DNA of 32,000 nucleotides from Zymomonas mobilis subsp. mobilis ATCC 10988 (GTDB taxonomy: Bacteria > Pseudomonadota > Alphaproteobacteria > Sphingomonadales > Sphingomonadaceae), in assembly GCF_000175255.2 (NCBI RefSeq), contig NC_017262.1, positions 1,530,001 through 1,562,000 on the forward strand, given 5' to 3'. The notes under the pieces were generated by a model that was given only the letters and a program-made list of their open reading frames with translations, ran no database searches and was not told where the DNA came from. Both the position numbers and the translations under genes were made by a program. Within the stretch, counting starts at the first letter, position 1; each line of letters starts with the position of its first letter. Shown piece after piece: positions 5,735-29,749 of the stretch.

Positions 5735-6595
5735 CTATTCAGCTCTCCTTTCGAGGAGAGTTGAAGAAAGATAATCAGATAAAAAATCCGCTATTTTTTT
5801 GAGCGAAAGCGGTAACGCGATTATCTGCATCTCTTCCAAAAAGCGCCGTTCATTTCTGGTCAGATTCTCGATATCGACTAGGGCAAAATGAGGCGCTTTT
5901 GATCTTTTGATTATCTGCCTTGCAAAACTTCTCAGCATTTGGTCATCAAAATGGCAACCGATGAACAGGAAGCTGCATGATGACCGCCTTTCTTGCACTG
6001 ATTCAGGGATGGGGGTCTGAATATCAATTTCGGTCAAGACTTCGACATAATCGGAATCTGAAATCAGATAATTCTGATGCGGTGAAACAGAGCCATGCGG
6101 TTTGTAAAGAAGGGTTTGCCATTCTTTAACGCTTTCCATCGGGACTTCTTCGCCCGTGGCATCATAAGCTGTGAACCAGCGATATTCGTTAATCGCTGCG
6201 TGATTGATGCCTTGAATTTCGCCCCAGTTCAAAGTCTTGTCTTGGGATAAAGCCTGACGCATGGCGCCATCATACCAACTGTCAACGATAAGCGGGGGAT
6301 GAAGCGCGGCGATAAGCTGATGCAGTGGGGAAGGGGGCACCGGATTTTCAAAGGCGGCATTCATAATCGCCGTCAGGGTTTTTCGATGGCGGCGGCTTTC
6401 GATATATTGCGCGGCAGCCCAAGGATTACCTTTTGCCCGTTTAGGAAGGGCGACCTTCTTCCCGAAAAAATCGGCTAGCCCCTTTATGGAAACCGGCGTC
6501 CACTGATTGGCGGTGATCGCGGTGACATCGGGGCCTAGATAAAAAGCGAGCGCCTGACGCGATAAATGGTCAGAAATATCTGACAGGATATCCAT
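5735..6595 (-). CDS. SIR2-like (SIR2_2-type) domain protein, last gene of the nifB operon (286 aa)
   Basis: Four blocks resemble, from memory, the SIR2_2 family: AFYLGPDVT (in place of FlGAGvS), PLIVDSWYDGAM (in place of iiTTNYDxLlE), LYKPHGSVSPHQNYLISDSDY (LHGs…DY) and FLFIGCHFDDQMLR (llFlGySlxDxxlr). Its start overlaps the nifT stop (TGATG at 6593..6597). Confidence 0.55.
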   Translation of the reverse strand: MDILSDISDHLSRQALAFYLGPDVTAITANQWTPVSIKGLADFFGKKVALPKRAKGNPWAAAQYIESRRHRKTLTAIMNAAFENPVPPSPLHQLIAALHPPLIVDSWYDGAMRQALSQDKTLNWGEIQGINHAAINEYRWFTAYDATGEEVPMESVKEWQTLLYKPHGSVSPHQNYLISDSDYVEVLTEIDIQTPIPESVQERRSSCSFLFIGCHFDDQMLRSFARQIIKRSKAPHFALVDIENLTRNERRFLEEMQIIALPLSLKKIADFLSDYLSSTLLERRAE

Positions 6596-12231: not shown

Positions 12232-14502
12232 ATGCAAAAAAGGCAATCCTATAAGACGCTGCTTTTATATTCTGCAATATTATCAATAGGATTGATGACC
12301 GAAAGCAAAGCGGAACCCCCCGTTGATTACAGTAAAAATGATTCTGTTTTGGATCGCGACTCTTCTCAAAATGATTCGAATAAAAAGAAGCCGTCGATAT
12401 CCCATCAGAAATCAGGGCAAGAGGTCGCTTCCGCACAAGACATCACCGTTAATGCCAAAATAGAAAACGGTACCGGAGCGAGAACCGCTTTACCGGTCGT
12501 CAATTTTGGCCCTTTGGGTGATATAAAGCCGGAAAACGCCCCTTTTTCAATTTTAAGTGTGCCTCATGATGTTATCCGCAACCAGCAAGCGCGGAATGTG
12601 AATGATTTGATGCAATATTTGCCTTCGGTGCAGCTGGAAATGCGCGGTGATCCGGGAACTTCCCGCCCTCAATCACGAGGCTTTGAAGCGGATGTGATTG
12701 CCAATAGCCGCATGGATGGTTTTAATATTGCGACCACCACGCCTTATGCTGCCGAGCAGTTTGAAAATCTCCAAGTTTTGAATGGGTTGGCCGGTGCGAT
12801 CTATGGCCCTCAAAATCCGGCAGGCACCTTTGAATATACGTTAAAAAGACCAACCACCGAAATGATGGAGGATTTTTCGGTCGGAATCGACTCCCGTGGC
12901 ACCGTAACTGAAGCCGCTGATATTTCAGGATCGACGGGTAAAAACAACTGGTTCGGCTATCGCGTCAATCTGGTGCATGGTGCCGGTTCCAACTATGTCC
13001 GAACAGGGCATATCAATCGTAATTTGGTGAGTGGCAGTTTCGACATCCATGTCGATCCCCAAACCGTTATCGAATTGAATGCCAGCCATTATGTCTATGA
13101 TATCAAAGGCGGCGCACCCGGATTTTCTTACAGTAACAATATTCAACTTCCAAAGGCGCCCGATCTTAGCACTCCTTATCTGGGGCAAAGCTATGCTGGA
13201 TATAACGCCCAGACAGATACGGCCTCTGGTAAAATCAAACATCAATTCGGTGACAATTGGAGCCTTGTTGCCGGAGGCTTATTTCAGAATGCGTGGCGGG
13301 ATGTCTTTGCCAATGCCAATACTTTGATTGATAATATAGGCGATTATAAACAGACGATTGCCTCGGCTGCCACGGCCTATCGATTTAAAATTGCCAGCAA
13401 TCTTGCCTATTTAAACGGGCATTTCCATACCGGATTTGTGCGTCATGATGTGGCTTTGGGTTCCAATGGCTATGTCATGAGCAATTATAACCCAACCAGT
13501 AGCCAGAGTTTTTCTTTAGGCACCAGCAATCTTTATAATCCTACCCGATTTGATGGCACGCGCCCCCGTTCCTCGGGTAGTTATCGTTCAGCCATTGCCC
13601 GCAATCAATCGCTGATTGTCAGCGATACGATTACCTTTAACAAGCATTGGTCGATCTTGGGTGCCTTTAGTTGGAGCTGGATGACATCTTCAAGCTGGAA
13701 TAAGGCCGGAACCCGTACTGCCCATAATTATACCCAAGGCGCTTTTAGCCCGAATACCAGCCTGATTTATCATCCTATTGAAAATCATACCGCTTATTTT
13801 ACATGGGGGCGCAGTATTCAGCAGGGCATGACGGCACCGGCTGGAAGTGCCAATGTCAGCCAGATTCTTAACCCTTATGAAAGCGAGCAATATGAGCTGG
13901 GCTATAAGGTGAAATGGCGCAATTTGTCCTTGAATATCGACGGTTTCAGAATGACCCGACCTTATGCCTATGTCGATACAACCACGAATGTTTATGGCAT
14001 GTATGGCACCCAGCGGAATTGGGGTTTTGAATTCCAGATGGCGGGTCATATCCGTCATGACCTGTCGGTATTGGGTGGGGTGACATGGCTGGATGCCAAA
14101 GTCGGTTCGACGGGCAATCTGACAACTTCCCACAAGGAAATTGTCGGGGTGCCACCTGTCCAGTCGAATATTCTGATTGATTATACTTTGCCATTTTCAA
14201 AAGAGAGTTTGGCAAATGGTTTGGCGATTAACGGGAGCGTCCGTTACACTGGAACGCGGGCGGCGAATAACACCAATACGACATATGCGCCCCAATTCGT
14301 AACGGCGAATATTGGTATCCGCTATCCTTTCAAAATGGCGAATAAACCTTGGGTTGCCCGTTTTACCGTCAATAATATCATGAACGAACATTATTGGGCT
14401 TCGGTCTATCCATCTTCTATCAATGGGGCTGCCGGAGGCACCAACAGTGCTTATGCCGGTTTACCGCGAACCTATTCCTTTACTTTGGAATGCACCCTTT
14501 AG
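12232..14502 (+). CDS. TonB-dependent outer-membrane receptor (about 756 aa)
   Basis: It has a signal peptide (MQKRQSYKTLLLYSAILSIGLMTESKA), a low-complexity linker, a TonB-box-like DITVNAK, plug motifs (RGF…, NLQVLNGLAGAIYGPQNPAGT) and a long barrel. The start is uncertain (12217 TTG, 12220 ATG or 12232 ATG). Confidence 0.8.
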   Translation: MQKRQSYKTLLLYSAILSIGLMTESKAEPPVDYSKNDSVLDRDSSQNDSNKKKPSISHQKSGQEVASAQDITVNAKIENGTGARTALPVVNFGPLGDIKPENAPFSILSVPHDVIRNQQARNVNDLMQYLPSVQLEMRGDPGTSRPQSRGFEADVIANSRMDGFNIATTTPYAAEQFENLQVLNGLAGAIYGPQNPAGTFEYTLKRPTTEMMEDFSVGIDSRGTVTEAADISGSTGKNNWFGYRVNLVHGAGSNYVRTGHINRNLVSGSFDIHVDPQTVIELNASHYVYDIKGGAPGFSYSNNIQLPKAPDLSTPYLGQSYAGYNAQTDTASGKIKHQFGDNWSLVAGGLFQNAWRDVFANANTLIDNIGDYKQTIASAATAYRFKIASNLAYLNGHFHTGFVRHDVALGSNGYVMSNYNPTSSQSFSLGTSNLYNPTRFDGTRPRSSGSYRSAIARNQSLIVSDTITFNKHWSILGAFSWSWMTSSSWNKAGTRTAHNYTQGAFSPNTSLIYHPIENHTAYFTWGRSIQQGMTAPAGSANVSQILNPYESEQYELGYKVKWRNLSLNIDGFRMTRPYAYVDTTTNVYGMYGTQRNWGFEFQMAGHIRHDLSVLGGVTWLDAKVGSTGNLTTSHKEIVGVPPVQSNILIDYTLPFSKESLANGLAINGSVRYTGTRAANNTNTTYAPQFVTANIGIRYPFKMANKPWVARFTVNNIMNEHYWASVYPSSINGAAGGTNSAYAGLPRTYSFTLECTL

Positions 14503-14970: not shown

Positions 14971-15552
14971 GTGACGGATATACTACTTCTGGTGGTAAGT
15001 GCCTGTCTGGTCAACAATGTTATTCTAACGCGCTTTTTAGGTTTATGTTCCTTTATGGGTGTAACTACGCGCGTTGATACTGCTGTCGGGATGGGGGCGG
15101 CCTGCACCTTTGTTATTACCACCTCTTCTATGGCAAGTTGGGCTTTGGAGCATTGGTTACTCGCCCCCTTTGGTCTGGGATATCTTCGGACGGTCACTTT
15201 TATTCTGATTATCGCTTCGGCGGTTCAGCTGACGGAATCGTTTTTTCGTAAATTCTCGCCGACTTTGTTTCGGCTTTTGGGCATTTATCTGCCGCTTATC
15301 ACAACCAATTGTGCCGTTTTGGGCATTACCTTGCTGTTGGTAGAACAGCATTATGGATTTGTGGACAGCACGGTTTTCGCTTTTGCTTCCTCGGTTGGAT
15401 ACAGCCTCGTTATGGTGCTGTTTGCGGGATTACGTGAAAGATTGGCGTTATCGGTAACGCCTCGTTTATTTGAAGGCCCTCCTATCGGTTTTGTGACGGC
15501 AAGTTTGCTGGCGCTGGCTTTTATGGGTTTTTCTGGAATGTCTGTCCACTAG
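14971..15552 (+). CDS. rnfA: Rnf electron-transport complex subunit A (193 aa, GTG start)
   Basis: MTDILLLVVSACLVNNVILTRFLGLCSFMGV is a typical RnfA/NqrE-like polytopic membrane protein. GGAAGGA lies upstream as an RBS. Confidence 0.9.
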   Translation: MTDILLLVVSACLVNNVILTRFLGLCSFMGVTTRVDTAVGMGAACTFVITTSSMASWALEHWLLAPFGLGYLRTVTFILIIASAVQLTESFFRKFSPTLFRLLGIYLPLITTNCAVLGITLLLVEQHYGFVDSTVFAFASSVGYSLVMVLFAGLRERLALSVTPRLFEGPPIGFVTASLLALAFMGFSGMSVH

Positions 15553-15568
15553 ACGGGAAGAAAGAACG

Positions 15569-16231
15569 ATGTTGATAGCCATTATAAGCCTGACTGTCAT
15601 GGGGCTGGCACTTGGCCTGATGCTGGGGCTGTCCTCGAAATTGCTGCGGGTAGAAGAAGATCCGATTGAAGGCCAGTTACAGGCTTTGTTGCCGGGATCA
15701 CAATGCGGGCAATGCGGTTATGTCGGCTGTTCACAATATGCGGCCGCTTTGGCGCATGATGGCGCGCCTGTAACCCAATGCACCCCTGGGGGTAGAAGTG
15801 TTGCTGAAGCCTTGGCCAAGGCCTTGGGTGTCAGCCTTGATCTGTCACAAGCGGAAGATATTGGCCCCAAAACCGCTTTGATCCATGAAGATTTATGTAT
15901 CGGATGCACGGCCTGTATTCGCGATTGTTCCAGTGATGCCATTATCGGGGCGGCGCGTCAGGTGCATACGATTATTCCTGATGTCTGCCATGGTTGCAGC
16001 AAATGTGAAACGGCTTGTCCGACGGGGGCTATCGAAATGGTGCCGGTGGCGGTCACGTTGGACAACTGGCATTGGGATAAACCCAATCTGGCAATACAGG
16101 ATAGTTTAGCTAATCCAGCCTTTGCGGCGCAGGCATTGGCCAATCGGATAACGGATGAATCCGATGGTGGACAGGGTAAAGCCTATAAAGCTTCTCTTGA
16201 AAAAGAAGCCGAAGAAGAAAGCTTGGGCTAG
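15569..16231 (+). CDS. rnfB: Rnf complex subunit B, Fe-S protein (220 aa)
   Basis: It has an N-terminal TM helix, a CGQCGYVGC…C cluster motif, two ferredoxin CxxCxxCxxxC(P) motifs and an acidic C-terminal extension. Confidence 0.9.
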   Translation: MLIAIISLTVMGLALGLMLGLSSKLLRVEEDPIEGQLQALLPGSQCGQCGYVGCSQYAAALAHDGAPVTQCTPGGRSVAEALAKALGVSLDLSQAEDIGPKTALIHEDLCIGCTACIRDCSSDAIIGAARQVHTIIPDVCHGCSKCETACPTGAIEMVPVAVTLDNWHWDKPNLAIQDSLANPAFAAQALANRITDESDGGQGKAYKASLEKEAEEESLG

Positions 16232-16241
16232 GGGAGCAGAG

Positions 16242-17705
16242 ATGAAATTATTTTCAGTCCGTGGGGGTATCCATCCCAGTTATCGGAAACAGGCGACTAC
16301 AGCTAAAAAGATAGAGCCTTTGCCGATTGTGCCATTCTATTTTCTGCCTTTGCGGCAACATTCCGGCGCTCCGGCGGAAGCGGTTGTTAATATTGGTGAC
16401 CATGTTGGGAAGGGGCAACTTTTGGCGGCTCCGGCTGGCCGGATATCCGCGCCTATTCATGCTCCAACCTCTGGTATTATTCGGGCAATCCAGAATATGA
16501 CCGCGCCTCATCCTTCCGGTTTGCCGGGGATGACGATGGTTTTGGAAGCGGATGGCAAAGATAGCTGGGCGGAATTACCCGAAGCCTATAGTGATCCTTT
16601 CGCCGTCGATCCGCAGTTAATTCGTGAACGGGTGGCTTGGGCTGGCGTTGTTGGTTTGGGTGGCGCGGCTTTTCCGGCAGCTGTCAAATTAGAACAGAGC
16701 AGCCAGAAACCCATTAAAATGGTGGTGCTGAATGGTGCCGAATGCGAACCCTATCTGACGGGCGATGATCGGGTAATGCAGGAATATGCCGATGAAGTTA
16801 TTTCCGGCGGCCGTCTGATTGCCCATGCGGTAGGTGCGCCGAAGGTCGTGATCGGGATTGAGCGGAACAAGCCCGAAGCGATCGCGATAATGAAAAAGAC
16901 CGCCGAAGCCTATGACAATGTCGAGATCGCGGATTTACCGGCGCAATATCCGGTAGGTTCTGCCCGTCATTTGGTGCAAGCCTTGACCGGTCTAGAAATT
17001 TCAGCCCGCACCCGTATCGCTGATGTTGGGGTTCTGGTTCAAAATGTCGGGACTGCTCGCGCGGTTTGGCGTTCTGCCCGTTATGGCGAGCCGCTTATCT
17101 CGCGTATTGTGACGGTTTCTGGCGGCGGCATGAATGACCCGAAAACATTAGATGCACCGATTGGGTCACCGGTTAAAGCCTTGATTGATTTCTGCGGCGG
17201 CATGAATGAAAAAGCCGAACAGATCGTCACCGGAGGCCCTTTGATGGGGGTCGGCCTGCCGAATATTGATGTTCCGGTTATCAAAGGCACCGCCGGTATT
17301 TTGGCTTTGACTTCCGAAGAAATGGATCATCGCCCAACCGAAGCCTGTTTGCGTTGTGGCCGTTGCGTTGATGTTTGCCCTTGTGGTCTAAGTCCGGTTG
17401 AAATGGCCAGTTTGATCCGGCGTGATAAATTGGAAGAAGTTGAAAAGCTTCAGGTGATGGACTGCTTTTCTTGCGGTTCCTGTTCTTATGTTTGTCCGTC
17501 CCATTTGCCTTTGGTGCAATATTTCAACTATGCCAAGGGCGAAATCTGGAATCGGCGTGACGAAGAGAGAAAACAGAACAAGATCAAGGCCTTGGCCGCT
17601 GCCAAAGAGGCGCGTCTGGCTGAAGTCTTGCGCCAGAGGCAACTTGCGGCAGAGCGGGCGAAAGCCGCCAAAGCTGCCGCCAATAAAGAGGAAAAGGCAG
17701 TTTAA
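16242..17705 (+). CDS. rnfC: Rnf complex subunit C (487 aa)
   Basis: MKLFSVRGGIHP…, GLGGAAFP (NADH/FMN site), and two 4Fe-4S motifs (CLRCGRCVDVCP, CFSCGSCSYVCP) are present, with a Lys/Ala-rich tail. I chose ATG 16242 (GGGGAG RBS) because the track start at 16155 overlaps rnfB. Confidence 0.9.
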   Translation: MKLFSVRGGIHPSYRKQATTAKKIEPLPIVPFYFLPLRQHSGAPAEAVVNIGDHVGKGQLLAAPAGRISAPIHAPTSGIIRAIQNMTAPHPSGLPGMTMVLEADGKDSWAELPEAYSDPFAVDPQLIRERVAWAGVVGLGGAAFPAAVKLEQSSQKPIKMVVLNGAECEPYLTGDDRVMQEYADEVISGGRLIAHAVGAPKVVIGIERNKPEAIAIMKKTAEAYDNVEIADLPAQYPVGSARHLVQALTGLEISARTRIADVGVLVQNVGTARAVWRSARYGEPLISRIVTVSGGGMNDPKTLDAPIGSPVKALIDFCGGMNEKAEQIVTGGPLMGVGLPNIDVPVIKGTAGILALTSEEMDHRPTEACLRCGRCVDVCPCGLSPVEMASLIRRDKLEEVEKLQVMDCFSCGSCSYVCPSHLPLVQYFNYAKGEIWNRRDEERKQNKIKALAAAKEARLAEVLRQRQLAAERAKAAKAAANKEEKAV

Positions 17706-18781
17706 TGAGTGGCAGTATCGCAATCAGCGGGCCCTTTACCCATGCGGATAACAGTGTCTCGCGCACCATGCAGACGGTTATGCTGGCGCTTGTTCCAGCG
17801 ACCTTGTTTGATCTTTGGCTGTTTGGCTGGCCTGCCATTTTCCTTTTTGGTCTGACTATTCTTTTCTGTCTTTTGATTGAGGCGGGATGCCTGATGCTGG
17901 CAAAACGTCCGGTGCTTCCGGCGTTAAAAGATGGTTCTGCGATTTTAAGCGGCTGGCTTATTGCGATGAGTTTACCGCCTTGGGCACCTTGGTGGATTGC
18001 TTTATTGGGGGCTATTTTCGCGATTGCTTTGGCAAAACAGGTTTTTGGTGGTTTGGGACAAAATTTGTTTAACCCTGCCATGGTTGCCCGTGTCGCTTTG
18101 CTGATTTCTTTTCCGTTACAAATGACGCAATTTGCTGCCCCACATCCCTTATTGACTGCCCATGCGCCAGATATTCTGACAGGGCTAAAAATTACTTTGG
18201 GTTGTGAAGGTAATCTGGATTCTTTGTCGGCGGCTTCTGCGCTGGGTCATATCAAAACTGAATTGACGCGGGGGATTCCGGTCACCCGCACGGTTCAGAC
18301 CTTGCCCGGATTAAAAGATATGCTGTTGGGGATTAAGCCCGGTTCTATGGGTGAAACCTCGGCAATCTTTATTCTGTTAGGGGGTCTGTTCTTGATGTGG
18401 CGGCGGATTATTAGCTGGCATATTCCGGTTTCAATGTTGTTGACGCTGTTTTTATTGGGAAGTCTGTTTTCAGCTATCAATCCGGCACGCTTTGCTTCTG
18501 GTCTTATTGAATTGCTGTCCGGTGCTTCGATGCTGGGCGCGTTCTTTATTGCAACCGATTATGTCACCTCTCCGGTATCGAAAAAAGGTCAGGTCATATT
18601 CGGCTTTGGGGTAGGCTTCCTGACATGGATTATTCGTAGCTTTGCCGGTTATCCAGAAGGGGTGGCCTTTGCCGTGTTGCTGATGAATGCGACGACCCCC
18701 ATCATCGACCACTATAGCCGCCCTCGTGTGTTCGGTCGCACTCGCCAAGGACAACCGGTGGCATTTGGGGACAAGAAATGA
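17705..18781 (+). CDS. rnfD: Rnf complex subunit D (358 aa)
   Basis: It is a polytopic NqrB/RnfD-like membrane protein. Its start overlaps the rnfC stop (TAATG). Confidence 0.9.
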   Translation: MSGSIAISGPFTHADNSVSRTMQTVMLALVPATLFDLWLFGWPAIFLFGLTILFCLLIEAGCLMLAKRPVLPALKDGSAILSGWLIAMSLPPWAPWWIALLGAIFAIALAKQVFGGLGQNLFNPAMVARVALLISFPLQMTQFAAPHPLLTAHAPDILTGLKITLGCEGNLDSLSAASALGHIKTELTRGIPVTRTVQTLPGLKDMLLGIKPGSMGETSAIFILLGGLFLMWRRIISWHIPVSMLLTLFLLGSLFSAINPARFASGLIELLSGASMLGAFFIATDYVTSPVSKKGQVIFGFGVGFLTWIIRSFAGYPEGVAFAVLLMNATTPIIDHYSRPRVFGRTRQGQPVAFGDKK

Positions 18782-19488
18782 CCGATCAAAAGGATGAAGC
18801 CGAAAACCGGAAAGAAGCCGTCGAACAAGACGCTTTATTTCAGGCCGATGAGGCGATGCATGAAGGGGATAAGCCAGAGAAAGAGAAGGCTTTCTTCTTT
18901 CATGGCCTTGTGTTGGCCGCCTTTTGTTTGGGCTTTGGGGCTTTATTGGCCTTAACTTATCATTTGACCGCTCAAACAATCGTAGCGCGCGGGGTCGAAG
19001 ATCAGCAGGCTTCTTTGGAACAGGTTATTCCTGCCTCGATTCATGACAATGATATCTCTGCTCATCCGCTCCATCTAAAAGATGCCGAAGGGCATGATGT
19101 AACGGTTTTTCGCGCGACAAAGGCCGGTCATGTGACGGGTGTTGCCTATGAAATTTCTGGCACTGGCTATAGTGGTGAAATCCGTTTGATGATGGGTGTC
19201 GATGCCGAAGGTCATATTCTTGGGGTGCGGGCGCTGGCTCATAAAGAAACCCCAGGACTGGGTGACAAGATCGAAGCCAATAAATCGAATTGGATCTTGC
19301 GCTTTACCGGCCTGTCTTTGACCAATCCGTCAGAAAGCAAATGGAAAGTCAAAAAGGACGGCGGTCAGTTTGACCAATTTTCCGGTGCAACGATTACGCC
19401 ACGTGGTGTTGTTGCGGCGATCCATCGTGGTCTGGAATTTTTCGAGACGCATAAAAACACTCTGTTGGAGAGTTCAAATGTCCAATAA
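18778..19488 (+). CDS. rnfG: Rnf complex subunit G (236 aa)
   Basis: It has a single TM helix and the FMN-attachment motif FSGATITPRG. An ATGA overlap links it to rnfD. There is a charged N-terminal extension of about 35 aa, so the start could be later. Confidence 0.85.
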   Translation: MTDQKDEAENRKEAVEQDALFQADEAMHEGDKPEKEKAFFFHGLVLAAFCLGFGALLALTYHLTAQTIVARGVEDQQASLEQVIPASIHDNDISAHPLHLKDAEGHDVTVFRATKAGHVTGVAYEISGTGYSGEIRLMMGVDAEGHILGVRALAHKETPGLGDKIEANKSNWILRFTGLSLTNPSESKWKVKKDGGQFDQFSGATITPRGVVAAIHRGLEFFETHKNTLLESSNVQ

Positions 19489-20152
19489 TGAGTATTTCCG
19501 TATCGCCAAAGACGGTCTTTGGGACAATAACGGTATTCTAAGTATGTTGTTGGGGCTTTGCCCAACAATGGCTGTTACGACCAGTGCCACAAATGCCTTG
19601 GGCATGGGATTGGCAACCGCCGCAGTGATGGCGGCTTCCAATCTTTTGGTTTCTGTGTTTCGGCATCATATTACCTATGAAGTACGTGTGCCGGTTTATA
19701 TCCTGATTGTGGCGGCCATGGTGACCTTGGTTGATCTGGTGATGAATGCCTATATGCACCCGCTTTACAAGGTGTTGGGGCTGTTCATTCCGTTGATCGT
19801 TTCAAACTGCTTGCCGCTTGCCCATTTGGAGGCCTTTGCGGGCAAAAAACCGCCTCTGGCCTCTTTAACCGATGGTGTTTTTGCTGGATTGGGCTTTACC
19901 TTTGCCCTGACGATCATTGGTGGCCTGCGTGAAATTATCGGTTCAGGCACTCTTTTTGCCAATGCGGCTTTATTGCTGGGATCAAGCTTCCGTTTTCTGG
20001 AATGTCATCTGTTACCGACGGATTGTCATATTTTGATGATGGTTTTACCGCCGGGGGGCTTTTTGGTGACTGGCTTCGTTTTAGTCGGGAAAAGAATGAT
20101 CGACGTGGCACAGGGCAAAGAAATTTCTATGTCCGGCGCGCATGGGGCTTAG
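19478..20152 (+). CDS. rnfE: Rnf complex subunit E (224 aa)
   Basis: MSNNEYFRIAKDGLWDNNGILSMLLGLCPTMAVTT is the conserved RnfE/NqrD N-terminus. I chose ATG 19478; the longer track ORF overlaps rnfG. Confidence 0.9.
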   Translation: MSNNEYFRIAKDGLWDNNGILSMLLGLCPTMAVTTSATNALGMGLATAAVMAASNLLVSVFRHHITYEVRVPVYILIVAAMVTLVDLVMNAYMHPLYKVLGLFIPLIVSNCLPLAHLEAFAGKKPPLASLTDGVFAGLGFTFALTIIGGLREIIGSGTLFANAALLLGSSFRFLECHLLPTDCHILMMVLPPGGFLVTGFVLVGKRMIDVAQGKEISMSGAHGA

Positions 20153-20164
20153 GGAGGCAAAAAG

Positions 20165-20431
20165 ATGAAGATATCCGTCGCTTATGCCAAACCGGAACGC
20201 CAGTGGTGGCTTGAATGTGAAGTCAAAGAAGGCGCGACTATCGAAGACGGTATTAACGCTTCCGGTATCTTAAAGCGGTGCCCTGAGATCGATCTTGAAA
20301 AACAGAAGGTCGGTATCTTTGGTAAAGTCGCTAAATTAGATGCGCCTTTAGAAGAAGGGATGCGGATCGAGATTTATCGGCCGCTTTTGGTTGATCCCAA
20401 AACTGTCCCTAAAAAGAAAAAGAAGGCTTAA
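20165..20431 (+). CDS. rnfH: RnfH family protein (88 aa, ubiquitin-like fold family)
   Basis: MKISVAYAKPERQWWLECEVKEGATIEDGI…IEIYRPL matches the RnfH/UPF0125 pattern. It is the last gene of the rnf cluster. Confidence 0.85.
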   Translation: MKISVAYAKPERQWWLECEVKEGATIEDGINASGILKRCPEIDLEKQKVGIFGKVAKLDAPLEEGMRIEIYRPLLVDPKTVPKKKKKA

Positions 20432-20481: not shown

Positions 20482-22866
20482 TTATAAAATCGTCATCGTT
20501 AAATTAAAGAACACGCTTCTTCCTGACAACCGCCAGTATAGCGGCGCACCATTTGGATATTCTGCGGTGGTTTTCGATTGATTACCCGCAAAATCGCTGA
20601 TGGCATGGCTACCGAAAACATTCGATATTTTAATGCTGGGCGTGATATTTCTTAGGATATTGCCACCGACATTTTTGAAATGCCAGCCAAACGCCATATC
20701 AGCGGTGATGTTACTGTGTATTAAATACTGGTTTTTAAAGACGGTGTTTCCAGCTGTGTCTGTTGTACTATCCAATCCCCAATGATTGCCGACATATTTC
20801 CCGATAAAAGAGAAATAGGGACCATCTTTCTTCTCGTATAACACGCCGAAAGAGGCCAGAGATTTTGGAGATGCGGCCACCCGTATTTTGGAATCTTTAT
20901 AATGGGCGCTATTGACGCTGTAGTTTCCATAAAGGGAAACGCCATATCCGATGGCATATTGGCCTTCGATTTCCAATCCTTTGTAAATTGCGCCGCCGCT
21001 ATTCACATAAGTCGTTTCTGTGCCGATATTGGGGACGTTAATTTGGGCAGAAGCAATATAGTTTGAAAAATCGATATAATAGCCATCGGCAGAAATCGTC
21101 CAATTCTTCTTTTGAAGAACCGTTCCGACTTGATAATTCCACGTTGTTTCCGGTTTTACATAACCGACATTTTGCGTTTGAAAGACACTGAGGGGCGGGG
21201 CTAGGAAACCACGTGCAATTTGACCATAGGCACTCCAACCTTTCATCAATATTTGATTGATTGCGATGGAGGGCTGCCATGATTTGAATGATTGGTTATC
21301 CTTTAACGCGGTTTTGGTATTCTTGTTGATCGCCGCATCATAATTCCGGTGAAAATAAGAATATTTTATACCCGGTTTTACGGTCATGCCTTTCATCGGA
21401 TGCCAGTCGAATTCTAAATAAGGCTGTAGGGTCGTATTGATGTCATGGATATTATAGCTGTAGGCCGATCCATTCTTACCCGGAACCATGATAGAATTTT
21501 GGGACAGATCAACCGCATAGGTATAGCGTCGATCATTCTGAACATCTGCCCAGACCCCCGTTAAAATATCGCCGACAGGTGTTTTCGCCTTTAAAGCCAG
21601 CGTGTCCCCATAGGCTCGAAATTGAGCATCGGCATATTTGCCGGGAACATCATTGGCATAGCTGCCGACTTTTTTACCGGCGGCATTATAAAAAGTAACC
21701 CCATTTGCCGAGGGACTGTTTTGGCTGGCATCGGTTGTTTTTGTATAAGAATGTTCAAAGCCGACAGAATAGACTTTATTCTCTAATTCTAACCAAGAGA
21801 GCGGCTTCGCCTTTAGGCTGATATAACTAAAATCAGATTTATAGGTGCTTGGATTATATTTATAAAAACACTGTAATTGAGGATCATTACATAAGCCGTA
21901 ATTCTTCCCATATTGGGCATATTCGGCCAAGGTTGCGCCTTGGGTGGTATATTGATGCTCTTTATTGAAGGTAGTGGCCGCCGTAAGGGTGATGTCTGAC
22001 CCTAATTTGATAACATCTTTAAACATGATGTTGCTGCGGCGTTCATTTGAATGCGTCAAATAGCCATCCGTGGCTTCATGCTGCAAATCAAGAACCATTT
22101 TTCCGGCAATGGTTTCTCCGCTATCGATTTCTAAACCACCTGCGCGGGTATTATAACTGCCATAGGTTCCATAGGGCGTAATACCAAATTTTTCAGAAGG
22201 TTTTCTTGAGGTAAAGCCAATGGTTCCCCCAAAAGTAGCATTCCCGATAGTGGAAGCTGTGCCGGGGCCGCGATCAACTTCAGCTTGACCGAGGAAATGG
22301 GCTATAAACAAGGATGAGGTCGAATGATGTAGATCGCTGGCATCTCCAAAAGGGATGCCATCAAAGGTCATATTATATTGCCCATCCTGAAAGCCTCTTA
22401 GGCTCATCGTTTCAGCTTTACCAATACCGGGGCCATTGGGATTTTGTGTCCAGACACTGGGCTGATATTTGATAATGTCATCCACACTGGCCAAGGGAAT
22501 AATATTATTGGCCATAAAAGAACTTTGAATGATGGATGTCGGCTGTGTGATGTTCAGAGGTACGGAGGAAGGCGCCAGACGCTCGGCCTTCCCAATAACG
22601 GTTATTTCCTTGCCGCTCCAATAGACATTCTTTTCGTCTTTAGAGTGATGATCCGCTTCATTTTTCTGAAAATTCTTTTCCTTATCGTTTTTTTTATCAG
22701 GCAAAGAAGATTTTAAATCTGAAATAGGGTCTGATGACAAAGATAGATTATCTGATTTATTATTGGTTTCAGTATATTGATGTGCCTGTAATCCGGCCGG
22801 TAATGTTATTGTTCCAAGACTGAGCGTTATAATAATAGCTGTTTTTGAATTTACTTGGAAAGACAT
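20482..22866 (-). CDS. TonB-dependent outer-membrane receptor (794 aa)
   Basis: It has a signal peptide, a Lys/Asp/Ser-rich linker of about 70 aa, a TonB-box-like EITVIGK, plug motifs (SLRGF…, VDRGPGTASTIGNATFGGTI) and a long barrel. Confidence 0.8.
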   Translation of the reverse strand: MSFQVNSKTAIIITLSLGTITLPAGLQAHQYTETNNKSDNLSLSSDPISDLKSSLPDKKNDKEKNFQKNEADHHSKDEKNVYWSGKEITVIGKAERLAPSSVPLNITQPTSIIQSSFMANNIIPLASVDDIIKYQPSVWTQNPNGPGIGKAETMSLRGFQDGQYNMTFDGIPFGDASDLHHSTSSLFIAHFLGQAEVDRGPGTASTIGNATFGGTIGFTSRKPSEKFGITPYGTYGSYNTRAGGLEIDSGETIAGKMVLDLQHEATDGYLTHSNERRSNIMFKDVIKLGSDITLTAATTFNKEHQYTTQGATLAEYAQYGKNYGLCNDPQLQCFYKYNPSTYKSDFSYISLKAKPLSWLELENKVYSVGFEHSYTKTTDASQNSPSANGVTFYNAAGKKVGSYANDVPGKYADAQFRAYGDTLALKAKTPVGDILTGVWADVQNDRRYTYAVDLSQNSIMVPGKNGSAYSYNIHDINTTLQPYLEFDWHPMKGMTVKPGIKYSYFHRNYDAAINKNTKTALKDNQSFKSWQPSIAINQILMKGWSAYGQIARGFLAPPLSVFQTQNVGYVKPETTWNYQVGTVLQKKNWTISADGYYIDFSNYIASAQINVPNIGTETTYVNSGGAIYKGLEIEGQYAIGYGVSLYGNYSVNSAHYKDSKIRVAASPKSLASFGVLYEKKDGPYFSFIGKYVGNHWGLDSTTDTAGNTVFKNQYLIHSNITADMAFGWHFKNVGGNILRNITPSIKISNVFGSHAISDFAGNQSKTTAEYPNGAPLYWRLSGRSVFFNLTMTIL

Positions 22867-26020: not shown

Positions 26021-26166
26021 GCAGTCCCCTTTTTGGCCTTTTGCCGTAAAAAGGGGGGAGGGGTCAAGGGAAGCCCTATTACAGGGGCATAGCCTGTCAG
26101 GCTGTTTTAGAAATCTTGATACCCGATATTTCTAAAATAAATCACTTCATTTCATTGAACGCATCA

Positions 26167-26468
26167 TGGTGCGGGCGGAGGGACTCGAACCCTCACGGGC
26201 AAATGCCCAACGGATTTTCTTACCTGCCACGGCTTTCACCGCCACTGCTTATGCAGTGTTTGGGGTCTGGACTATCCCTTCACCCTGCCCTTTGAAAAAG
26301 GGGGTAGGTGCTGCCCGTCTAGTCTCTACACCTTCCTGAAAAAATCAGGCTTGGCTCGGGATCGGCATTTTACAGCTTTCCCCGAATTTGAGCAGTTCTG
26401 CACCTTTCGTTTCCGAAGGGGCACTCAAAATTTTAAGTCCGTAGCGTCTACCATTCCGCCACGCCCGC
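26167..26468 (-). tRNA. tRNA-Leu(UAA) gene split by a group I intron (exon 1 26435..26468, exon 2 26167..26218; CCA encoded)
   Basis: The joined exons give GCGGGCG-TG-GCG-GAATGGTAGA-CGC-T-ACGGA-CTTAAAA-TCCGT-TGGGCATTTGCCCGT-GAGGG-TTCGAGT-CCCTC-CGCCCGC-ACCA. This is a complete 86-nt type II (long variable arm) cloverleaf with anticodon UAA. The acceptor, anticodon and T stems are all Watson-Crick paired. Confidence 0.9.
26219..26434 (-). ncRNA. Group I intron (IC3-like, 216 nt, no ORF) inserted between U34 and A35 of tRNA-Leu(UAA)
   Basis: The 5' exon ends in U and the intron ends in G. Exon ACUU can pair with intron GAGU (nt 9-12), giving the U-G wobble at the splice site. The next hairpin has a GAAA tetraloop (GCCCCUUCG-GAAA-CGAAAGGUGC). 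The tracts CAAAUUCGGGGAAA, CCCGAGCCAAGCC and AAGGUGUAGAGACUAGACGG (26315..26334) match, from memory, the catalytic core of the Azoarcus tRNA-Ile and cyanobacterial tRNA-Leu introns. Confidence 0.85.
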
Positions 26469-26515
26469 AACATTATGCCGAATCCGCATAGCGGGGCTTG
26501 GGGGTAAAATGCAAG

Positions 26516-26800
26516 CTAAATTTCAATATTAAGATGTTCTCGTATCTCTTTTCCCGGTTTGAAATAGGGGACACGTTTGGCTTCGACCTCGACTTTTTCG
26601 CCGGTTCTGGGATTCCTGCCCAGACGGGCGTCCCGAAAACGGGTGGAAAAGGCACCAAAACCCCGAATCTCTACCCGACCACCTTTGGCCAAATGATGGG
26701 TAATCCCGTCAAAGAAAACATCTATAATATGCTCTATTTCTTCTGATGAAAGTTCAGGATTATCATTGGCTAATGTTTGGATCAGTTCGGAACGAATCAT
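26516..26800 (-). CDS. ihfB: Integration host factor beta subunit (94 aa)
   Basis: [11 protein letters not shown]…[42 protein letters not shown] is the HU/IHF fold with the IHF-beta pattern. I chose ATG 26800 (AAGGAA RBS) because the longer track ORF adds a non-conserved leader. Confidence 0.9.
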
Positions 26801-28042: not shown

Positions 28043-29749
28043 CTAGTTCTGCTGATCGCGAGCCTTGTTGAGGGCTGCACCAAGAATGTCACCCAAGGAA
28101 GCGCCAGAATCTGACGAACCATACTGAGCAACTGCTTCTTTTTCTTCTGCAACCTGCATTGCTTTGATGGAGAAGTTCGGCTTCTTCTGACGATCGAAAC
28201 CGATCACCATAGCATCGAGCTTCTGACCAGCCTGGAAGCGATCCGGACGCTGTTCGTCACGATCACGACCCAAGTCGCTGCGACGGATGAAGCCGATGGC
28301 ACCATCATCACCAGCCTGAACTTCCAAACCACCATCGGTGACAGCAAGAACGGTAACGGTGACAACCTGATTGCGCTGTAAAGAGCTACCTGCGTTGGCG
28401 GCGGGGACGTTACCACGTTCCAGCTGCTTCATACCAAGCGAGATGCGTTCTTTTTCAGGATCAACATCAAGAACGACAGCTTTAACAACTTCACCTTTGT
28501 GGTGGAGGCTCAAAGCTTCTTCACCGGACATACCCCAAGCGATGTCGGACATGTGAACCATACCATCAACATCATTGTCGAGACCGATGAACAGACCGAA
28601 TTCGGTGGAGTTCTTGACTTCGCCTTCAACGGTGGAGCCAACCGGATGAGCTTCGGCGAAGCTTTCCCACGGATTCGGCTGAGCCTGTTTCAGACCAAGG
28701 GAGATACGACGTTTTTCAGCATCGACTTCCAAAATGACAACTTCGACTTCCTGACTGGTGGAAACGATTTTGCCCGGATGAACGTTTTTCTTCGTCCATG
28801 ACATTTCGGAAACGTGAACCAGACCTTCGATGCCGGGTTCAAGTTCAACGAAAGCACCATATTCGGTGATATTCGTGACGCGACCCATGAATTTGGCACC
28901 GACCGGATATTTGGCACCAACGCCTTCCCACGGATCGGTTTCAAGCTGCTTCATGCCCAGCGAAATACGCTGTGTATCGCGGTTGATGCGGATGATCTGA
29001 ACCGTGACGCTGTCACCGATAGCGATCATTTCGCTCGGATGACCAACGCGACGATAGCTGAGGTCGGTTACATGCAACAGACCATCAATGCCGCCGAGAT
29101 CAACAAAGGCACCGTAGTCGGTGATGTTTTTGACAACACCGGTGATAACCTGACCTTCAGCCAAGGACTGGATCAGACCGGAACGCTGTTCTGCGCGGGT
29201 TTCTTCCAGAACGGCACGGCGGGATACCACGATATTCCCACGACGACGATCCATCTTTAAAATCTGGAAAGGCTGCGGAATGTCCATCAGAGGAGCAACA
29301 TCGCGTACCGGACGGATGTCAACCTGACTGCCGGGCAAGAAGGCAACTGCGCCGGAAAGGTCAACGGTAAATCCGCCTTTAACCCGTCCGAAGATAACGC
29401 CTTCAACGCGGCTGGAGTTAGCAAATTCAGCTTCCAGTTTATCCCATGCCGCTTCACGACGAGCGCGGTCACGGGAAAGCATTGCTTCACCCTGACTGTT
29501 TTCAACGCGGTCAACGAAAACTTCGACTTCGTCGCCGGCTTTCAATTCGGCTTTCTGACCGGGGGCTGCGAATTCGCGCAGCGGCACGCGGCCTTCAGAT
29601 TTCAGACCAACATCAATAACAGCCATGTCATTTTCAATAGCTGTGATGGTGCCTTTTACAACGCGTCCTTCAAAGCCTTCTTCTTCACCAAGCGTCTGGT
29701 TAAGCAATGCTGCAAAATCATCGCGAGTAGGATTTGCCATAGTGGCCAT
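28043..29749 (-). CDS. rpsA: 30S ribosomal protein S1 (568 aa)
   Basis: It contains six S1/OB repeats (…GFTVDL…AFLPGSQVD…, YGAFVDLGGIDGLLHVTD, YGAFVELEPGIEGLVHVSE, FGLFIGLDNDVDGMVHMSD…). Confidence 0.95.
   Translation of the reverse strand: MATMANPTRDDFAALLNQTLGEEEGFEGRVVKGTITAIENDMAVIDVGLKSEGRVPLREFAAPGQKAELKAGDEVEVFVDRVENSQGEAMLSRDRARREAAWDKLEAEFANSSRVEGVIFGRVKGGFTVDLSGAVAFLPGSQVDIRPVRDVAPLMDIPQPFQILKMDRRRGNIVVSRRAVLEETRAEQRSGLIQSLAEGQVITGVVKNITDYGAFVDLGGIDGLLHVTDLSYRRVGHPSEMIAIGDSVTVQIIRINRDTQRISLGMKQLETDPWEGVGAKYPVGAKFMGRVTNITEYGAFVELEPGIEGLVHVSEMSWTKKNVHPGKIVSTSQEVEVVILEVDAEKRRISLGLKQAQPNPWESFAEAHPVGSTVEGEVKNSTEFGLFIGLDNDVDGMVHMSDIAWGMSGEEALSLHHKGEVVKAVVLDVDPEKERISLGMKQLERGNVPAANAGSSLQRNQVVTVTVLAVTDGGLEVQAGDDGAIGFIRRSDLGRDRDEQRPDRFQAGQKLDAMVIGFDRQKKPNFSIKAMQVAEEKEAVAQYGSSDSGASLGDILGAALNKARDQQN

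Follow-up and report, generated by a model that had tools for sequence, protein, structure and literature searches.

Two short segments on the minus strand of the Zymomonas mobilis subsp. mobilis ATCC 10988 genome resemble the halves of a single leucine tRNA, yet they are held apart by 216 nt. The locus therefore raises the question of whether a tRNA-Leu(UAA) gene is interrupted here by a group I intron and, if so, how the intron would be removed and how it came to reside in an alphaproteobacterium. We analyzed the locus within a window of 32,000 nucleotides (contig NC_017262.1, positions 1,530,001 to 1,562,000), and positions given below refer to this window unless another genome is named. 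The original prediction, which was made from the letters of the window, described a group I intron in tRNA-Leu(UAA), regarded such an intron as unusual outside cyanobacteria, and suggested horizontal transfer or deep retention as its source. We found that the structural reading was right, whereas the claims of rarity and horizontal transfer were not. In our view it is very likely that the Z. mobilis tRNA-Leu(UAA), which is probably the only one in the genome, is split between U34 and A35 by a 216-nt IC3 intron that is spliced as proposed below and that was vertically inherited in the Sphingomonadales.

Structure and surroundings of the split tRNA gene

The 5′ exon (26468-26435, minus strand; 34 nt, GCGGGCGTGGCGGAATGGTAGACGCTACGGACTT) supplies the acceptor arm, the D arm and the first half of the anticodon arm; its last base is U34, which is the U at position −1 relative to the splice site. 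The 3′ exon (26218-26167, minus strand; 52 nt, AAAATCCGTTGGGCATTTGCCCGTGAGGGTTCGAGTCCCTCCGCCCGCACCA) begins with A35 and continues through the long variable arm, the T arm and the acceptor strand to an encoded CCA. Between the exons lies the 216-nt intron of the IC3-type subgroup (26434-26219, minus strand), whose first letters are AAAATTTTGAGTGCC and whose last letters are GGCAGGTAAG. Reading of the sequence together with ARAGORN placed the exons, the intron and both junctions at exactly the predicted bases, with the insertion after U34 and a terminal G on the intron. When the exons were joined in silico (junction GGACUU/AAAAUCCG, window 26435 to 26218), ARAGORN called an 86-nt type II tRNA-Leu(taa) with a long variable arm. 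Thus, the two halves 216 nt apart do make the tRNA that had been predicted, and all of its stems are intact. The anticodon loop reads CUU/intron/AAAA, which is the site that defines the Leu.3Ug type. As in other bacterial IC3 tRNA introns, the insertion site is in the anticodon loop, the intron is small (~200-350 nt for this group) and there is no ORF; in agreement with the prediction on this last point, no frame in the intron is able to hold an endonuclease.

The gene was also expected to escape a standard tRNA finder. As expected, ARAGORN in its default mode reported no tRNAs in the whole 32-kb window, and with introns allowed it found the tRNA-Leu gene with a 216-nt intron at 34/35. Gene calls in public assemblies cover the locus with ORFs of 42 and 57 aa, the latter because the opposite strand has one frame that is open across the entire intron. 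Both of these ORFs are spurious. Table S1 of Vera et al. 2020 (PMC7566282) contains no annotation revision at this locus, and neither the intron nor an Rfam group I entry appears in the supplementary material of the REFINE small-RNA study of Z. mobilis. A literature search that combined Zymomonas with group I intron found no description of it, as the matches either made use of the Tetrahymena intron or contained the terms without linking them.

Along the minus strand, aroA, cmk and rpsA are followed by a phzF-like gene in the opposite orientation, then by ihfB, the split tRNA and an amino-acid permease gene. The rpsA gene (28043-29749, minus strand) encodes an RpsA protein that is identical in many Z. 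mobilis genomes, including CP001722.1 and CP023715.1 (ZM4). The ihfB gene (26516..26800, minus strand), which encodes a 94-aa protein of the HU/IHF family (Pfam PF00216), is the upstream gene in the rpsA-ihfB-tRNA-Leu context, and 47 nt separate its stop from the start of the tRNA. When the flanks of the tRNA were scanned for consensus signals, neither a sigma-70-like promoter in the gap after ihfB nor an intrinsic terminator downstream of the tRNA was detected, which suggests that ihfB and the tRNA may be co-transcribed. Of six Z. mobilis genomes compared, five have exactly the same intron and exons, and the sixth departs from them by a single G-to-A substitution on the 3′ side of P8. Across 13 genes encoded in the window, 21% of leucine codons are UUA; hence, by standard decoding rules, a tRNA-Leu with a UAA anticodon is needed.

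Group I identity and fold of the intron

The original prediction named a scan with the Rfam group I model as a check on its reading. The Intron_gpI family (RF00028) gave a significant match at 26444-26252 (minus strand), scoring 54.8 bits where 50 is the gathering score, with E = 1.8e-11, and the match spans the full model (1-253). This was the only Rfam family above threshold in the entire 32 kb. A permissive Rfam scan of the locus revealed no family that could compete with Intron_gpI. The core tracts listed in the prediction were present as well. The core 18-mer GGTGTAGAGACTAGACGG spans J6/7, P7 and P3′ of the Zymomonas intron and is identical in many bacterial tRNA introns, including those of betaproteobacterial tRNA-Ile(CAU) and alphaproteobacterial tRNA-Arg(CCU). 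The Rfam gathering threshold was reached by only 2 of 15 homologous loci that we tested, with the other 13 falling below it. Because Rfam at this threshold finds so few relatives, homology was established by alignment and covariation instead. The low rate of detection is in line with the composition of the Rfam seed, which is without bacterial sequences (Williams, bioRxiv 10.1101/2020.01.27.920355).

A P1-P9 model containing 62 pairs was derived by hand and tested on a MAFFT alignment of 58 tRNA-Leu introns. Under this model 96.1% of the cells were paired, compared with 30-42% when the 3′ partners were slid by 1-3 columns. Compensatory changes were observed in 33 of the 62 pairs, compared with 14-19 in the slid controls, and none of 500 shuffles reached the observed pairing or covariation values. 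Covariation was strong in P2, P3, P6a, P8, P9.0 and both P9 hairpins. P3, P4, P5, P6, P6a and P8 were 94-100% paired (99.7% for P3 and 100% for P4, P5 and P6), with compensatory changes in all of these helices except P6. Since P6 and P7 are invariant, neither helix provides covariation evidence, although both are fully paired. The splice-site U·G, the omega-G, the L2 GAAA and the J6/7-P7-J8/7 core are also invariant in the alignment, and the L9 GAAA is nearly so. The minimum-free-energy fold of the intron had a z-score of −2.61 and recovered P2, P4, P5, P6a, P7, P8 and both P9 hairpins. The P1-P9 fold, together with an Rfam match above threshold, bears out the prediction that this tRNA-Leu(UAA) holds a group I intron.

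The internal guide sequence UUGAGU (26423..26428, minus strand; intron nt 7-12) pairs with exon ACUU and intron A1-A2 to form P1, which is 98% paired. The prediction that exon ACUU pairs with GAGU and places a U·G at the 5′ splice site agrees with the alignment, as the U34·G9 wobble is kept in 58 of 58 homologues. A possible P10 would pair intron U5-U8 with the AAAA of the 3′ exon. The P2 hairpin (26400..26422, minus strand; nt 13-35), with compensatory changes in seven of its nine pairs, was found to carry the GAAA tetraloop expected of it. The 5′ strand of P3, J3/4 and the P4-P5-P6-P6a domain extend over 26330..26395 (minus strand), with the P3 strand at nt 40-45 and the domain at nt 50-105. 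In the hand-derived model, P3 is formed by nt 40-45 with 119-124, P4 by nt 50-55 with 74-79, and P5 by nt 59-60 with 69-70, a minimal 2-bp stem with an 8-nt loop; P6 and P6a occupy nt 80-105. Within this region compensatory changes were seen in P3, P4, P5 and P6a.

In the next segment (26311..26326, minus strand), the 5′ strand of P7 (G109, bulged A110 and GACUA at nt 111-115) leads through J7/3 into the second strand of P3 (nt 119-124). The partner strand of P7, UAGUCC, lies further on at 26269..26274 (minus strand; nt 161-166). P7 forms a pseudoknot relative to P3 and is 100% paired. We take its G111-C165 pair to be the guanosine-binding site, by homology with the Azoarcus and Tetrahymena introns. 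P9.0 (nt 169-172 with 210-213) and the two hairpins it encloses, P9a (nt 177-192) and P9b (nt 193-206, with a GAAA tetraloop), lie within 26219..26266 (minus strand); the P9 helices (11-13) are 87-94% paired and contain many compensatory changes. The omega-G, G216, is at 26219 (minus strand). The variable loops of the Zymomonas intron are AT-rich.

The P8 hairpin (26283..26308, minus strand; nt 127-152) reads CCUACC...GGCAGG in Zymomonas and is thus without the receptor motif CCUAAG...UAUGG. Among the matches listed, only 5 of 82 relatives carry the canonical motif, so its absence is the norm and not a defect. In IC3 tRNA introns of the Azoarcus and Anabaena type, P8 and P5 provide the receptors for docking of the GAAA tetraloops on P2 and P9. 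The Azoarcus intron contains GAAA tetraloops on both L2 and L9, as does the Zymomonas intron, and has canonical 11-nt receptors in P5 and P8. In Zymomonas both tetraloops are conserved, whereas the canonical 11-nt receptor motif is absent from P8, which is a variant, and P5 is minimal. For this reason tertiary stabilization may be weaker than in Azoarcus.

Distribution and origin of the intron

We scanned species-representative genomes with the core 18-mer GGTGTAGAGACTAGACGG, a pattern that picks the T/A core variant and hence a non-cyanobacterial sample. The scan returned at least 120 stretches, most of which were inside tRNA anticodon loops when ARAGORN was run with introns allowed. In this mode ARAGORN labeled about 21 genes as tRNA-Ser, tRNA-Phe or tRNA-Ile. 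We rejected these labels; the genes are tRNA-Leu(UAA) with the intron boundary off by 1-2 nt, and the labels were corrected by reading the exons, re-splicing at ACTT/...G/AAAAT and re-running ARAGORN. At least 82 loci that were neither from Zymomonas nor from cyanobacteria proved to be tRNA-Leu(taa) split at U34/A35, a count from which six further loci were left out as they were cut by locus ends or masked bases. The hosts are Alphaproteobacteria (at least 50 loci, at least 8 of them in Sphingomonadales), Acidobacteriota (at least 14), Betaproteobacteria (at least 6), unclassified Proteobacteria (at least 5), Gammaproteobacteria (at least 3-4), Bacteroidota (at least 2) and Binatia (at least 1). 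Among the matches listed, the same core was also found in introns of tRNA-Ile(CAU), tRNA-Arg(CCU) and several other tRNAs, such that within the sample the Leu introns and the Ile/Arg introns have one common core.

These counts, which are of species representatives, do not agree with the view that an intron at the UAA site is unusual outside cyanobacteria. The claim to novelty was to fall if the lineage commonly had such introns, and they are indeed common, including in Sphingomonadales. The description of the intron as compact was correct: 216 nt is small, but it is unremarkable in a family in which the 82 listed relatives measure 202-336 nt with a median of 234. It is also close in size to the 205-nt Azoarcus intron (PMC13168695), and is for that reason unexceptional. 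A survey published in 2020 identified 5,292 group-I-split tRNA genes in 80,413 bacterial genomes and counted Leu.3Ug among its four classical types, each of which is IC3; it reported tRNA-Leu introns in Proteobacteria, with the Leu.3Cg variant occurring only in that phylum (Williams, bioRxiv 10.1101/2020.01.27.920355). The Zymomonas intron is therefore an ordinary, previously unannotated member of a classical and widespread family. Vepritskiy et al. reportedly described in 2002 a tRNA-Leu(UAA) intron at the same site in a subsurface gamma-proteobacterium. Although the class of that host differs from that of Zymomonas, the intron provides an earlier published case outside the cyanobacteria.

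The Zymomonas intron has the same host tRNA and U34/A35 site as the Leu.3Ug introns of cyanobacteria and plastids, and both have a −1 U in a U·G wobble, a terminal G, IC3 architecture and no ORF. In contrast to those introns, its host is an alphaproteobacterium, and its core is the form common to proteobacterial tRNA-Ile and tRNA-Arg introns. It has the same set of helices as the Azoarcus tRNA-Ile intron, the model small IC3 ribozyme, and sampled betaproteobacterial tRNA-Ile(CAU) introns of the Azoarcus type contain the identical core 18-mer. However, the host tRNA is different, and the Azoarcus site follows anticodon-loop position ~36 rather than lying at 34/35. The tRNA-Arg(CCU) introns of Agrobacterium tumefaciens and Bartonella bacilliformis (BbgpI) have hosts of the same class, belong to the same intron subgroup and have the same core, but they differ in host tRNA and insertion site. 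Moreover, the tRNA-Arg(CCU) introns have been described as sporadic, whereas the Leu(UAA) intron is syntenic across Sphingomonadales. The host tRNA of BbgpI was likewise unannotated until its intron was removed in silico (PMC7717549).

The evidence for synteny comes from at least five other Sphingomonadales genomes (Sphingomonas yantingensis, S. canadensis, a Sphingobium, a Novosphingobium and one Sphingomonadales MAG), in which rpsA is closely followed by ihfB and, after a gap of 52-82 nt, by the split tRNA-Leu(UAA). In a sixth genome the split tRNA follows ihfB after 1.6 kb. The exons of the split gene in other Sphingomonadales genomes match those of Zymomonas at 88-93% identity. Host taxonomy is partly reflected in a neighbor-joining tree of the introns, in which there are clades of Burkholderia, Caulobacterales, Acidobacteriota and Bacteroidota. 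The Zymomonas intron, whose branch is long, is placed next to two Sphingomonadales MAGs and a Devosiaceae sequence. Its nearest relatives among the matches listed are only 72-77% identical, a level that fits AT-rich drift in the variable loops of the Zymomonas intron, and overall identity is in this range for 80 or more tRNA-Leu introns. Given this identity and the long branch, the tree alone is no proof of vertical descent.

The suggestion of horizontal transfer has to be judged against these results. A recent acquisition by Zymomonas from a cyanobacterium or a plastid-like source would be in keeping with the history of the site, as Leu.3Ug introns at U34/A35 of tRNA-Leu(UAA) were first described in Anabaena, other cyanobacteria and plastids (Williams, bioRxiv 10.1101/2020.01.27.920355), and with the mixing of host classes in some clades of the intron tree. 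We nevertheless consider such an acquisition extremely unlikely. The split gene has its rpsA-ihfB context in common with the other Sphingomonadales genomes, its exons match theirs closely, the UAA-site intron is carried by at least 82 non-cyanobacterial species, and the core 18-mer recurs in proteobacterial tRNA-Ile(CAU) and tRNA-Arg(CCU) introns. For the non-cyanobacterial sequences compared here, the best explanation is vertical inheritance within the Sphingomonadales and not recent cyanobacterial transfer.

RNA 3′ ends and the proposed splicing pathway

RNA 3′ ends of Z. mobilis ZM4 were mapped by Term-seq (Vera et al. 2020, PMC7566282, Data Set S3), and we located these ends on the split gene. 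In the coordinates of CP023715.1 the gene is on the plus strand, with exon 1 at 1846285-1846318, the intron at 1846319-1846534 and exon 2 at 1846535-1846586. TERM_1936 (ZM4 1846534, plus strand; window 26219) falls exactly on the omega-G and was recorded in conditions A, C and D. TERM_1937 and TERM_1938 (ZM4 1846585 and 1846586; window 26168/26167) correspond to the CC and CCA ends of the tRNA, respectively, and were recorded in all six conditions. Two other listed sites on the plus strand of ZM4 are within the intron: TERM_1935 (ZM4 1846457) is at intron nt 139 in the P8 loop, whereas ProSite_1834 (ZM4 1846503) is at intron nt 185 in the P9a loop. The presence of 3′ ends at the omega-G and at the CCA end fits excision of the intron in vivo. 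The end at G216 could instead reflect 3′ splice-site hydrolysis or nuclease trimming, and not exon ligation.

In the published map, TERM_1936, TERM_1937 and TERM_1938 were classed as d2, meaning internal and antisense, and 3′ ends that overlap annotated tRNAs were by rule treated as processing sites (PMC7566282). The d2 class, taken together with this rule, indicates that the tRNA was apparently missing from the annotation used in that study and that a minus-strand ORF was annotated over it. Vera et al. 2020 (PMC7566282) make no mention of an intron.

We propose the following pathway for removal of the intron. The tRNA gene would be transcribed, probably with ihfB, whose end is just upstream, and the intron would then fold into P1-P9. 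Pairing of the guide GAGU with exon ACUU would generate the U·G wobble at the 5′ splice site, which an external guanosine bound in P7 would attack. The terminal G216 would subsequently take over the guanosine pocket, with P10 (UUUU:AAAA) holding the 3′ exon, and the freed 3′-OH of U34 would attack the 3′ splice site. Exon ligation would yield the 86-nt tRNA and release a linear intron ending in G216. The Azoarcus intron, which is of a related IC3 type, self-splices in vitro (PMC13168695), and splicing of the Bartonella tRNA-Arg(CCU) intron was shown both in vivo and in vitro (PMC7717549). By analogy with these introns, we infer GTP-dependent autocatalysis for the Zymomonas intron, which is real and very probably functional.

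Two other readings accept the intron as such but not its autonomous splicing. If it were a decaying relic that no longer splices, an intron-less tRNA-Leu(UAA) encoded elsewhere would have to decode UUA. A second copy of that kind would serve this purpose, the canonical P8 receptor motif is missing in Zymomonas, and a truncated second copy in one relative indicates that decay does occur. Even so, this is a highly improbable account of a gene in which the core elements and tRNA stems are all intact, which is identical or nearly identical in six strains, and which occupies the conserved tRNA-Leu(UAA) position of the order. The 3′ ends at the CCA end in every condition and the one exactly on the omega-G also count against a relic. 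It is less improbable, though still unlikely, that the intron is spliced in vivo yet not autonomously, a protein cofactor being needed owing to reduced peripheral tertiary contacts. The 2-bp P5, the divergence of the P8 receptor from the canonical motif and the AT-rich variable loops are consistent with such a need, and many group I introns are assumed to require protein help in vivo (Hausner et al. 2014, as quoted in PMC7717549). On the other hand, IC3 tRNA introns of similarly small size, from Azoarcus (PMC13168695) and Bartonella (PMC7717549), self-splice in vitro, the Zymomonas intron retains both GAAA tetraloops, and the P8 motif that it lacks is rare among its listed relatives. We therefore favor autonomous splicing of a functional intron as described above.

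It is also conceivable that the intron is more than a neutral passenger. UUA codons are probably read by this host tRNA and no other, so guanosine-dependent splicing might tie the availability of tRNA-Leu(UAA) to growth state or to guanine-nucleotide levels; another possibility is that the intron persists after excision as a stable RNA with its own function. Either role seems very unlikely. The 3′ end at the omega-G, found in only three of the six Term-seq conditions, is compatible with condition-dependent accumulation but is no demonstration of it.

The Zymomonas example leaves knowledge of group I introns unchanged, and its value is in annotation. The intron would offer a naturally small ribozyme from a low-G+C mesophile, and its widespread family systematically escapes detection by default tRNA finders and at the Rfam gathering threshold. 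The annotation of Z. mobilis, an engineered ethanol producer, is heavily curated, yet the tRNA that reads UUA appears to be absent from it; the split gene for this tRNA is probably essential. In the published genome-wide map of 3′ ends, the CCA end of this tRNA and the end of its intron are filed as antisense internal terminators. Correction of the locus matters for models of codon usage and tRNA supply in this organism, and for its lists of small RNAs and terminators.

RNA 3′ ends and gene calls at the tRNA-Leu(UAA) locus

The published Term-seq map of Z. mobilis ZM4 contains several RNA 3′ ends that fall within or next to the split tRNA gene. TERM_1936 lies at window position 26219 (ZM4 1846534), the last nucleotide of the intron (omega-G), while TERM_1937 and TERM_1938 lie at 26168 and 26167 (ZM4 1846585 and 1846586), the CCA end of the tRNA. 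In the original data set (PMC7566282), the sites at the omega-G and at the CCA end are classed as antisense internal terminators, not as sites of tRNA or intron processing. Within the intron, TERM_1935 maps to the P8 loop (26296; ZM4 1846457) and ProSite_1834 to the P9a loop (26250; ZM4 1846503), and TERM_1939 is positioned 8 nt past the tRNA (26159; ZM4 1846594). About 30 nt 3′ of the tRNA there is an AT-rich inverted repeat, TTTTAGAAAT...ATTTCTAAAA (26105-26137, minus strand). This repeat is without a T tail, terminator calling gave no terminator there, and no Term-seq 3′ ends are listed at it.

Two ORFs in public gene calls overlap the tRNA and its intron. One, of 42 aa, shares the strand of the tRNA (26345-26473, minus; 13277-13405 in the syntenic Z. 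mobilis loci L001 and L002), and the other, of 57 aa, is antisense to it (26166-26339, plus; 13411-13584 in L001 and L002). The latter was called because a single frame on the strand opposite the tRNA stays open over the full intron. Neither ORF had a Pfam match, and both are probably spurious. On the permease side, 3-11 kb from the tRNA locus, are genes for RnfD, RnfG, RnfE and RnfH of the Rnf complex and for a TonB-dependent receptor (14971-20431, plus; 20482-22866, minus). These assignments come from the Pfam annotation of genes called in syntenic Z. mobilis loci, and they agree with the original prediction that rnf genes are present in the window.

Strain variation and a truncated copy

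The sole difference seen among six Z. mobilis genomes was at intron nt 150, in the 3′ strand of P8 (window equivalent ~26285), where CP021053.1 (L005) has A in place of G. This change would convert a possible U129·G150 wobble to a U-A pair and is compatible with the modeled structure. In a proteobacterial MAG (L015; 5654-5671, plus, and 6129-6146, minus), the intact split tRNA-Leu(UAA) is accompanied by a second, inverted copy ~450 bp away. The second copy, which retains the intron's 5′ half along with the 5′ exon and diverges directly past the P3′ strand, looks like a truncated pseudogene.

Detection of bacterial tRNA introns

The Zymomonas intron clears the Rfam Intron_gpI gathering threshold by a narrow margin (54.8 vs 50 bits). 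When 15 clearly homologous bacterial tRNA introns were tested, L008 and L112 alone reached 50 bits; the threshold failed 13 (L035, L062, L064, L108, L116, L057, L012, L104, L065, L027, L018, L066 and L030). The intron mode of ARAGORN set the exon-intron boundaries 1-2 nt off in about 21 tRNA-Leu(UAA) genes among the matches listed (L009, L024, L035, L039-L043, L047, L051, L060, L064, L068, L072, L079, L084, L090, L092, L099, L105, L116 and L120), labeling them tRNA-Ser, tRNA-Phe, tRNA-Ile or tRNA-Leu(aag). We rejected these labels, as re-splicing after ACTT and between the final intron G and AAAAT gave tRNA-Leu(taa) in every case.

Distribution among tRNAs and host classes

Judged by ARAGORN host labels alone, the core 18-mer also occurs, among the matches listed, in introns of Thr(GGU), Thr(CGU) and Arg(UCU) tRNAs, and in tRNA introns of the candidate phyla radiation (Saccharibacteria and Kaiserbacteria); these loci are L017, L025, L026, L082, L029, L052, L103, L109 and L117. 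Seven of the matches listed (L012, L014, L069, L070, L073, L098 and L124) have exons that are nearly identical to one another (…AGAGACTT / AAAATCTCTCGA…), and P5 is extended in their introns. Their alphaproteobacterial hosts span several orders (a Rhodobacteraceae, Hoeflea, a Hyphomicrobiales MAG, the sphingomonad Pacificimonas and an unclassified MAG), and their gammaproteobacterial hosts are Carnimonas and Microbulbifer. This distribution suggests that the entire tRNA-plus-intron locus transfers between classes.
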